In this document: positions 1,612-1,963 of the stretch, one piece after another | Layout of the letters: each line of letters starts with the position of its first letter | How positions within the stretch are numbered: the first letter of the stretch is position 1 | Assembly: GCF_003334255.1 (NCBI RefSeq) | Contig: NZ_QOWU01000069.1 | Direction: 5' to 3' (one strand) | Source of the DNA: Escherichia coli | GTDB taxonomy: Bacteria > Pseudomonadota > Gammaproteobacteria > Enterobacterales > Enterobacteriaceae | Length of the DNA stretch: 21,251 bases | The notes under the pieces: generated by a model | The model's database searches: none | What the model saw: the letters and a program-made list of their open reading frames with translations, nothing else | What the model was told of the DNA's origin: nothing | Position numbers and translations under genes: made by a program

Positions 1612-1637
1612 CGCCCGACATTTTCGGGCGTTTTTTT
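1612..1637 (+). terminator. Rho-independent terminator
   Basis: Stem CGCCCGA (1612-1618), loop CATTT, stem TCGGGCG (1624-1630), then a T7 run (1631-1637), directly after the stop of the membrane-protein gene. Confidence 0.75.
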
Positions 1638-1639
1638 GC

Positions 1640-1963
1640 CTTGTTACGCTACGAAGAGAATTATCCTTAATTACGCATTGTTAGTGTGGTGTTTGTTTTG
1701 TGAAAAATGCATTAATAAATACGCCAAATGCCGTTAATAAAATTATTAGCCCCATTAGTAATAGGCATATAAGTCAGTCTCTTTTTTGTTCGCAATGTGA
1801 TGATGGTCACGATTTGATCTGTGTAATCTAATGTACATATTTGTAAAAGGAAGTTAATATGAATTTCAATTCATGAATTAGCTTTATTTAACTGTCTCTG
1901 TAACATGCCTGTGTAATCAGAATTTCCTTATCACAATGAATTATTCTCAAAGTAGCAGGGAGA
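1640..1963 (+). promoter_or_regulatory. AT-rich leader / probable promoter region of the biosynthesis-export operon
   Basis: About 320 bp of strongly AT-rich non-coding sequence between the terminator and the first operon gene; AGGGAG ribosome-binding site just upstream of the ATG at 1964. Exact -35/-10 elements not assigned. Confidence 0.3.

Follow-up and report, generated by a model that had tools for sequence, protein, structure and literature searches.

The window analysed here, a stretch of 21,251 nt, is 100% identical to a 99.8-kb IncFII plasmid of Escherichia coli G6/7 and G8, the probiotic Symbioflor 2 strains, whose source is the faeces of healthy humans. Positions are given in window coordinates, which equal the record coordinate minus 9908. 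A 396-nt intergenic region (1574–1969) separates a gene for a DUF6622 family membrane protein upstream, with its stop codon at 1571–1573, from a FabG-like SDR gene downstream, which is the first gene of a long operon (Table 1). After the SDR gene come genes for an ACP, a FabZ/ApeP-like dehydratase, a ketosynthase, a 312-aa hypothetical protein and a PfkB-like protein, followed by a FeeM-domain N-acyl amino acid synthase, a second hypothetical protein, an ABC ATPase and an ABC permease, and finally a LolA-like protein, a further hypothetical protein and an RpfF-like crotonase whose gene ends at 13166. These genes are co-directional and are separated by very small gaps or overlap one another. 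Terminator scans found no plus-strand terminator inside the operon comparable in strength to the one described below, and no regulator gene is annotated within the cluster. Literature searches returned no published description of the cluster or of its regulation. As a whole the feature is an ordinary boundary between a gene and an operon: its elements are all of familiar kinds, and the cluster behind them is uncharacterised. Taken alone, a promoter region behind a textbook terminator carries little weight; the use of the analysis is that it delimits a fragment of ~180 bp that should contain the promoter of a lipid/signal cluster found both in the Symbioflor-2 strains G6/7 and G8 and in soft-rot enterobacteria.

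The cluster is bordered on both sides by annotated IS elements. The original prediction took it for a horizontally acquired operon, and this is probably correct: besides these IS elements, the signs of mobility are its location on an IncFII plasmid and the existence of homologues on the chromosomes of Pectobacterium and Brenneria. Among 5,426 genomes of E. coli and 72,556 plasmids searched for copies of the leader, only the two Symbioflor plasmids contained one. Copies of the cluster in E. coli, fetched by protein identity, are 99.9–100% identical over 1001–2700, and being near-identical they hold no comparative information. Many other E. coli plasmids retain the upstream side of the locus and carry the IS1 terminal repeat GGTAATGACTCCAACTTACTGAT directly after window position 1602, between the DUF6622 stop codon and the hairpin; the terminator, the leader and the entire cluster are all missing from them. 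In the indexed collection the DUF6622 protein occurs in 1,908 blocks versus 43 for the SDR, which makes this truncated, cluster-less arrangement the common one.

Table 1. Features of the DUF6622–SDR intergenic region and its surroundings, in window coordinates.
Feature	Position	Strand	Description or basis
DUF6622 family membrane-protein gene	1070–1573	+	RefSeq WP_016232763.1 and ORF list; alternative ATG 1028
IS1 junction in many other E. coli plasmids	1602–1603	.	homology to L012–L021 and L002 ends at 1602
Intrinsic (Rho-independent) terminator, predicted	1610–1637	+	stem ACGCCCGA / TCGGGCGT, loop CATTT, then T7
Distal leader, spacer	1640–1790	.	AT-rich (leader 31.8% GC); sequence conservation not detected
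CRP-like 22-bp dyad, CAATGTGATGATGGTCACGATT	1793–1814	.	core TGTGA-N6-TCACG at 1796–1811, centre 1803.5
Candidate promoter P1	1814–1841	+	-35 TTGATC (1814–1819), 16-nt spacer, -10 CATATT (1836–1841); predicted start ~1846–1848
Candidate promoter P2	1832–1860	+	-35 TGTACA (1832–1837), 17-nt spacer, -10 TAATAT (1855–1860); predicted start ~1866–1868
Conserved block in presumed 5' UTR, CTGTGTAATCAGAATTTCCTTATCACAATGAATTATTCTCAAAG	1909–1952	+	many invariant alignment columns
Ribosome-binding site and SDR start codons	1957–1972	+	AGGGAG at 1957–1962; sequence, annotation, alignment
FabG-like SDR gene, first of operon	1970–2689	+	RefSeq start GTG 1970; alternative ATG 1964
Operon downstream of leader, 12 genes	1970–13166	+	annotation, Pfam tags, NCBIfam

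The terminator behind the DUF6622 gene

The upstream membrane-protein gene had been described as ending in a hairpin followed by seven T residues, and this description was borne out. A terminator scan places the stem at 1610–1632, with nine pairs (six of them G–C), a 5-nt loop and the tail TTTTTGCCTT; eight of the pairs are perfect and form a GC-rich hairpin at 1611–1631, and the remaining one is a G·U pair. Folding the RNA of 1596–1645 returns the same hairpin at -15.2 kcal/mol (z = -3.1 versus shuffles). An uninterrupted run of seven T residues lies directly 3' of the stem (1631–1637), and the hairpin begins 37 nt past the DUF6622 stop codon on the same strand. The site therefore displays the features by which an intrinsic terminator is recognised, namely a GC-rich hairpin, a T tract and a position after a co-oriented gene. 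A stricter scan of both strands, requiring at least eight perfect pairs, at least five G–C pairs and a T-run, found this site and no other in the window, and none of 100 shuffles yielded one. We regard the terminator, as predicted, as very probably functional, in which case it would end transcription of the DUF6622 gene.

Structurally the element does not differ from canonical E. coli Rho-independent terminators such as those at the trp and rrn ends: it shares with them the perfect GC-rich stem of 8–9 bp, the 5-nt loop, the T7 run after the stem and the placement, here 37 nt past a stop codon on the same strand. Its T tract, however, is not conserved in the closest diverged relative, a metagenomic lineage represented by a Logan assembly (L023). 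There, TGAAAYAAGAAAA and the hairpin are recognisable and the hairpin is kept with a single A–U to G·U change, but the T tract is broken (GTTACTTATTAC) and the same scan calls no terminator. In Brenneria the same segment is recognisable but decayed. Judged from these comparisons, it may be only in the E. coli plasmid lineage that termination is strong.

The relative L023 also bears on the idea that the terminator insulates the operon from its neighbour. Its intact DUF6622 protein shares 75% amino acid identity with the one encoded in the window and its gene is syntenic with the cluster, and on this synteny DUF6622 is an ancestral neighbour of the cluster and not an unrelated gene. The terminator is thus real, but the word 'insulating' fits less well for an ancestral neighbour followed by a T tract that L023 does not share.

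Conservation of the proximal leader

Diverged relatives were found by a protein search with the SDR, and their contigs were then compared. In addition to L023, in which the SDR is 92% identical and an intact DUF6622 gene lies upstream, these comprise the Pectobacterium brasiliense chromosome (L022; SDR 91% identical), where carAB and a WYL-domain gene lie upstream and DUF6622 is absent, Brenneria salicis (L026/L028; 83%), where a ribonucleotide-reductase gene and a decayed C-terminal remnant of DUF6622 are found instead, and a more distant lineage (L027; 72%). A scan of a genome collection added Brenneria salicis alone, with an aligned leader identical to that of the Logan contig L026. When metagenomes were scanned with a degenerate 25-mer taken from the conserved block, three of the 32 matches proved real; each is a copy of the E. 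coli type with 99.7% or more identity to the window. The leader alignment accordingly comprises just four independent lineages.

Conservation was measured by local-alignment scores; match counts from global alignments are uninformative, with a large null variance. Between the four lineages the proximal 174 nt of the leader (1790–1963) align with z = 4–38, versus z of about 0–1 for the distal 150 nt, where one pair reaches 4.8. Identity across the proximal leader is 64–72%, compared with 41–55% at four-fold degenerate sites of the adjacent SDR gene. Because of these z scores, and of identity exceeding that of the degenerate sites, we conclude from the alignment that the proximal ~175 nt is under purifying selection. 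This module (1790–1963) is kept despite the different genes upstream of it in E. coli and L023, in Brenneria and in Pectobacterium. Its movement together with the cluster, independent of the genes upstream, is the strongest argument available for a promoter that belongs to the operon itself. The comparison makes it very probable that a regulated promoter dedicated to the operon lies in the leader, and we place that promoter, with good confidence, within 1790–1870.

The same observations weigh on the idea that the cluster has no independent promoter and is expressed by read-through from DUF6622 or from further upstream, the AT-rich DNA being neutral filler. In its favour, the DUF6622 gene is co-oriented with the cluster and ancestrally linked to it, the T tract of the terminator is eroded in L023, and the E. 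coli leader has no promoter matching the consensus at nine or more of 12 positions. Against it, the window has a strong, canonical terminator, purifying selection is clear in the proximal leader but not in the distal part, and the module is retained where DUF6622 has decayed (Brenneria) or is absent (Pectobacterium) and the upstream genes are unrelated. Expression by read-through is, on balance, very improbable.

At the downstream end of the module, two start codons are available to the SDR gene: ATG 1964, which is conserved in the relatives, and GTG 1970, the RefSeq start, which has the better Shine-Dalgarno spacing. The presumed 5' UTR contains essentially no conserved RNA structure, with a consensus fold of only -2.6 kcal/mol, and the single-sequence fold of the E. 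coli UTR is no better than that of shuffles (z = -0.8). Rfam searches, run at the gathering threshold over the whole window and permissively over 1500–2100, gave no more than four matches, all of them far below the gathering scores and three of them overlapping the terminator hairpin. A riboswitch or attenuator leader was rejected, there being neither a match to a known RNA family nor a conserved structure. Among short ORFs of at least 20 aa on both strands none is conserved in the relatives, and a leader peptide was likewise set aside, the mini-ORF ATG-AAT-TTC-AAT-TCA-TGA (1859–1876) not being conserved in them. Two repeat elements in this part of the leader were also discarded: an exact 10-nt direct repeat, CTGTGTAATC (at 1819 and 1909), for which we estimate a chance expectation of ~0.3 and which is conserved only in part, and a perfect 12-bp palindrome, AATTCATGAATT (1868–1879), which is not conserved.

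The strong conservation of 1909–1952, for which no DNA-level role is obvious, would find an explanation if the block of ~1846–1963 served post-transcriptional control, either as a target of CsrA/RsmA or of a small RNA or by anti-Shine-Dalgarno gating of the first gene. Candidate GGA motifs occur at 1849–1851 and within the Shine-Dalgarno sequence, and UUUCCUU (1923–1929) could pair with AGGGAGA (1957–1963). RNAalifold indeed pairs UUCCU with the Shine-Dalgarno sequence, and at two of the pairs both partners are changed, from CG to UA, in two sequences, but four AT-rich sequences have little statistical power, chance readily produces U/A-rich pairings, and the double changes do not amount to evidence. 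Pectobacterium moreover lacks the first GGA, and the weak folds and Rfam scores given above tell against a structured element. We consider post-transcriptional control through this block improbable, and a promoter module remains our reading of the proximal leader.

A CRP-like dyad and candidate promoters

Near the upstream edge of the conserved module lies a dyad resembling the binding site of CRP. Its core, TGTGATGATGGTCACG (TGTGA-TGATGG-TCACG), matches TGTGA-N6-TCACA at nine of 10 core positions and is the sole match within one mismatch in the 21-kb window; the chance expectation for such a dyad is 0.67 per 21 kb, or ~0.012 per 396-nt intergenic region. A dyad occupies the same alignment columns in all four lineages, taking the forms TGAGC-N6-TCACA, TGAGA-N6-TCGCA and TGAGA-N6-TCACA in the three relatives. 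Invariant across the four are T4, G5 and G7 together with the symmetric T, C and C, whereas positions 6 and 8 vary. In the CRP–DNA complex, G5 and G7 are the directly contacted pairs, and the invariant positions of the dyad coincide with these contacts and their symmetry mates. The L027 lineage has no such dyad.

CRP is our putative assignment for the protein that binds the dyad, and we would place it slightly short of an even chance. It was made by consensus matching rather than with a calibrated weight matrix, and a point against it is the left half-site, where three lineages out of four show TGAGA in place of TGTGA. Two other readings of the dyad region were rejected by inspection: a sigma-54 promoter, for which the -24/-12 fit is poor and the GG is not conserved, and an FNR site (TTGAT-N4-ATCAA), which does not fit.

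The original prediction made no mention of this dyad, a conserved feature of activator type that suggests conditional expression.

A sigma-70 scan of the E. coli leader found no plus-strand promoter with nine or more of 12 consensus matches; the two candidates, P1 and P2, score eight of 12 each. P1 shares the top score in a rough PWM scan of the intergenic region, and its -10 can also be read in an alternative register, TACATA (1834–1839). By position it has a homologue in Brenneria, TTTCCA-16-TATATT, which the sigma-70 scan scores at nine of 12, and from the dyad to the P1 -10 there are no indels in any lineage. The -10 of P2 conforms to the pattern TA.T.T, which is invariant in four lineages, and in both candidate -10 hexamers A(-11) and T(-7) are invariant in the four. 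Pectobacterium has a 6-nt insertion 3' of the P1 -10, at a position within the spacer of P2, whose distance between -35 and -10 it extends to 23. Because this insertion changes the spacing of P2, P1 is favoured, and we infer that its -10 is the one used and that transcription would begin at or near the start predicted for it. The absence from the leader of a promoter with nine of 12 matches fits an activator-dependent promoter, yet it is at the same time where the model is weakest.

Relative to the predicted starts, the dyad would be centred at roughly -42.5 to -44.5 (P1) or -62.5 to -63.5 (P2). These values come near the classical positions of class II (-41.5) and class I (-61.5) sites without matching them exactly; the starts are themselves predictions. 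The arrangement resembles CRP-dependent promoters of E. coli, both class II (gal P1) and class I (lac), in combining a 22-bp dyad with a weak core promoter and in lacking a dedicated regulator in the operon. It differs from them in that the predicted dyad here is 1–3 bp off -41.5 or -61.5 and in the TGAGA left half-site of the relatives.

Taken as a whole, we consider it probable that the region is a gene–operon boundary made up of a terminator, AT-rich filler and a conserved promoter module with a CRP-family dyad and a weak sigma-70 promoter. According to this model, the terminator would be followed by ~150 nt of unconserved AT-rich filler and then by the module of ~175 nt (~1790–1963), which would accompany the biosynthetic cluster from replicon to replicon and from host to host and supply its own promoter. 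The dyad (core 1796–1811) would sit directly upstream of, or overlap, the -35 zone of a weak sigma-70 promoter with its -10 at 1834–1841 (alternatively 1855–1860), and transcription would produce an unstructured 5' UTR of 100–120 nt ending in the Shine-Dalgarno sequence. With a core promoter this poor (eight of 12 consensus matches), basal transcription would be low; cAMP–CRP of the host, bound to the dyad, would recruit RNA polymerase, and the operon would be catabolite-sensitive in any enterobacterial host without a regulator encoded by the cluster. Conditional expression had been deduced from the AT-rich leader. The conclusion is probably right, but the evidence for it is the conserved dyad and the weak core promoter and not AT-richness.

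At the speculative end, and as something of a long shot, the ~175-nt module might be a self-contained 'plug-in' cassette. Here a CRP/Clp-family site would function together with 1909–1952 as a previously undescribed cis element, on which a small RNA, CsrA/RsmA or the lipid product made by the cluster could act, to couple production of a DSF-like or N-acyl-amino-acid signal to the carbon state of the recipient enterobacterium.

Leader composition and H-NS

A leader of ~320 bp, AT-rich by comparison with the flanking coding DNA, had been noted originally, and its length, its end coordinate and its composition all agree. The leader (1640–1963, ~324 nt, ending at ATG 1964) is 31.8% GC and 68% AT, against 46.6% GC for the DUF6622 gene, 47.8% for the SDR gene and 48.0% for the whole cluster, and only 0.33% of 324-nt windows across the stretch are equally GC-poor. 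TpA steps are enriched (0.100 versus 0.058 in the whole window). The leader is AT-rich in all five lineages, with 19–32% GC versus 38–48% in the SDR coding sequence. As a comparison sample we used ten intergenic regions of 152–478 nt from the first 50 kb of E. coli K-12. These range from 31% to 51% GC, and two of the ten, caiT-fixA (31.4% GC) and dapB-carA (33.4% GC), are as AT-rich as the leader. Its composition lies towards the AT-rich limit of what is normal in intergenic regulatory DNA and is not exceptional. Since ordinary regulatory regions of K-12 are comparably AT-rich, it does not follow that an AT-rich leader is a silenced one.

The alternative suggested by composition is that the AT-rich tract serves chiefly as a platform for H-NS (or for StpA, Hha or plasmid-encoded homologues), which would silence the cluster until relieved by an anti-silencer or an environmental cue. 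Over the ~324 nt that would be bound, the AT content is above the host average and TpA is enriched; AT-richness persists in each of the five lineages, also where the sequence has diverged, and the cluster is mobile, IS-flanked and on a plasmid. The high-affinity nucleation motif of H-NS is TCGATAAATT. With up to two mismatches allowed, it has no match in 1574–1969 and 26 in the window, about the number expected from shuffles. Nor is there A-tract phasing at 10–11 bp in the leader: the AA/TT power is 0.20 versus a shuffle mean of 0.40, and 76% of shuffles equal or exceed the observed value. In contrast to classic xenogeneic targets, the body of the operon is not AT-rich but close to the E. coli average in GC content, which does not favour the spreading of an H-NS filament. 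The conserved elements, moreover, are sequence-specific (the dyad and the hexamers), and binding driven by composition leaves them unexplained. The view of the tract as a substrate for nucleoid silencers thus stands as far as composition goes, but the motif, the phasing and the AT-rich gene body that would strengthen it were not found.

An instructive comparison is the regulatory region of ehxCABD on plasmid pO157, which measures 248 bp, is 71% AT and is bound by H-NS in vivo (Singh & Grainger 2013, PMC3688479). Like the leader described here, it is a regulatory region of a few hundred bp and ~70% AT that belongs to a plasmid-borne E. coli operon, and as a leader of similar size and composition it speaks for H-NS binding at our locus. 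It differs in the unusually high AT content of its coding DNA and in the consensus extended -10 of its promoter, whereas here the coding DNA is 48% GC and weak promoter elements are accompanied by a CRP-like activator site. All told, a leader that acts chiefly as an H-NS platform is a possibility that we rate as rather unlikely. It is compatible with the CRP-dependent promoter that we prefer.

Within that preferred arrangement, AT-richness would be the usual property of promoter and UTR DNA, which may in addition allow H-NS or StpA to bind and lower basal expression further. H-NS binding to the leader is plausible from composition alone and compatible with activation by CRP; a contribution of H-NS to regulation is, in our judgement, doubtful. 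If nucleoid proteins do bind non-specifically, the distal leader is the likeliest place. The caiT-fixA region of K-12 is similar to the leader in length and composition (471 nt at 31.4% GC), and differs from it in being chromosomal and in containing a divergent promoter pair. There, CRP (and FNR) activate and H-NS represses, which is the same combination as that proposed for the leader. Our prediction for the cluster is catabolite (cAMP–CRP) control, possibly layered on H-NS repression, and growth with no glucose and high cAMP might switch on a cluster that is otherwise silent.

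A fatty-acid-type cluster and its chromosomal homologues

The uncharacterised cluster downstream of the AT-rich leader comprises 12 genes of fatty-acid type, for which we found no published description in the literature. Five of its proteins were without any match among the NCBIfam models, and the RpfF-like crotonase scores 156 bits against the DSF synthase model, which is under the model cutoff. Homologues of the cluster are chromosomal in Pectobacterium brasiliense, where they adjoin carAB, and in Brenneria salicis. In one otherwise identical E. coli copy (L005; GCA_043991755.1, CP164069.1), the gene calls at 6070-10720 are fused or split: FabZ and KS are joined in a single call of 558 aa, while the genes for a 312-aa hypothetical protein, the PfkB-like protein and FeeM are called in pieces. 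This suggests frameshifts, arising either by decay or from sequencing errors.

Coordinates of features in the window and in related loci
Feature	Location	Strand	Detail
FabG-like SDR, ACP, FabZ/ApeP-like, KS, FeeM N-acyl amino acid synthase	1970-13166	+	cluster members
ABC exporter, LolA-like, RpfF-like crotonase	1970-13166	+	further cluster members
IS1 junction	1602-1603		E. coli plasmid loci L002, L012, L013, L015-L018, L020, L021
Degraded DUF6622 remnant, Brenneria	L026 2604-2756; L028 502-654		C-terminal ~50 residues
Direct repeat CTGTGTAATC	1819-1828, 1909-1918		within conserved leader module
Ambiguous SDR start	1964-1972	+	GTG 1970 or ATG 1964
Group II catalytic intron domains V-VI (RF00029)	691-767	-	Rfam match
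Second AT-rich tract	~15273-15801		324-nt windows as low as 31.5% GC

Linkage to DUF6622 and loss of the cluster

In Brenneria the cluster is preceded by a degraded remnant of the DUF6622 membrane-protein gene (45% identity, gapped), on the other side of which is a ribonucleotide-reductase gene. DUF6622 was thus linked to the cluster ancestrally, and in Brenneria it is being lost. Many other E. coli plasmids carry the IS1 end GGTAATGACTCCAACTTACTGAT directly at window position 1602, just 3' of DUF6622, and in these the entire cluster is absent. Since 1,908 blocks of the collection are indexed for the DUF6622 protein and only 43 for the SDR, loss of the cluster in association with IS1 appears to be the usual state.

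The SDR start and a repeat in the leader

RefSeq starts the SDR at the GTG, 7 nt 3' of AGGGAG, whereas the in-frame ATG is the start codon kept in both a diverged Logan assembly (L023) and Brenneria, in which codon 3 reads GTA or GTT, neither of them usable as a start. The 10-nt direct repeat in the leader is exact, with a spacing of 90 nt. Its two copies could each bind a protein, as paired sites; the chance expectation for such a repeat is about 0.3 (a rough estimate) and TAATC is the sole part kept in relatives, and that only partly. The repeat is probably a coincidence.

Other features of the window

At 41.8 bits, the RF00029 match barely exceeds its gathering score of 40; it falls among the IS remnants that precede DUF6622 and is presumably a piece of an intron. 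A second strongly AT-rich tract, the only other one in the window to match the AT-richness of the leader (1640-1963), lies between the genes for the GNAT acetyltransferase and the serine acetyltransferase.
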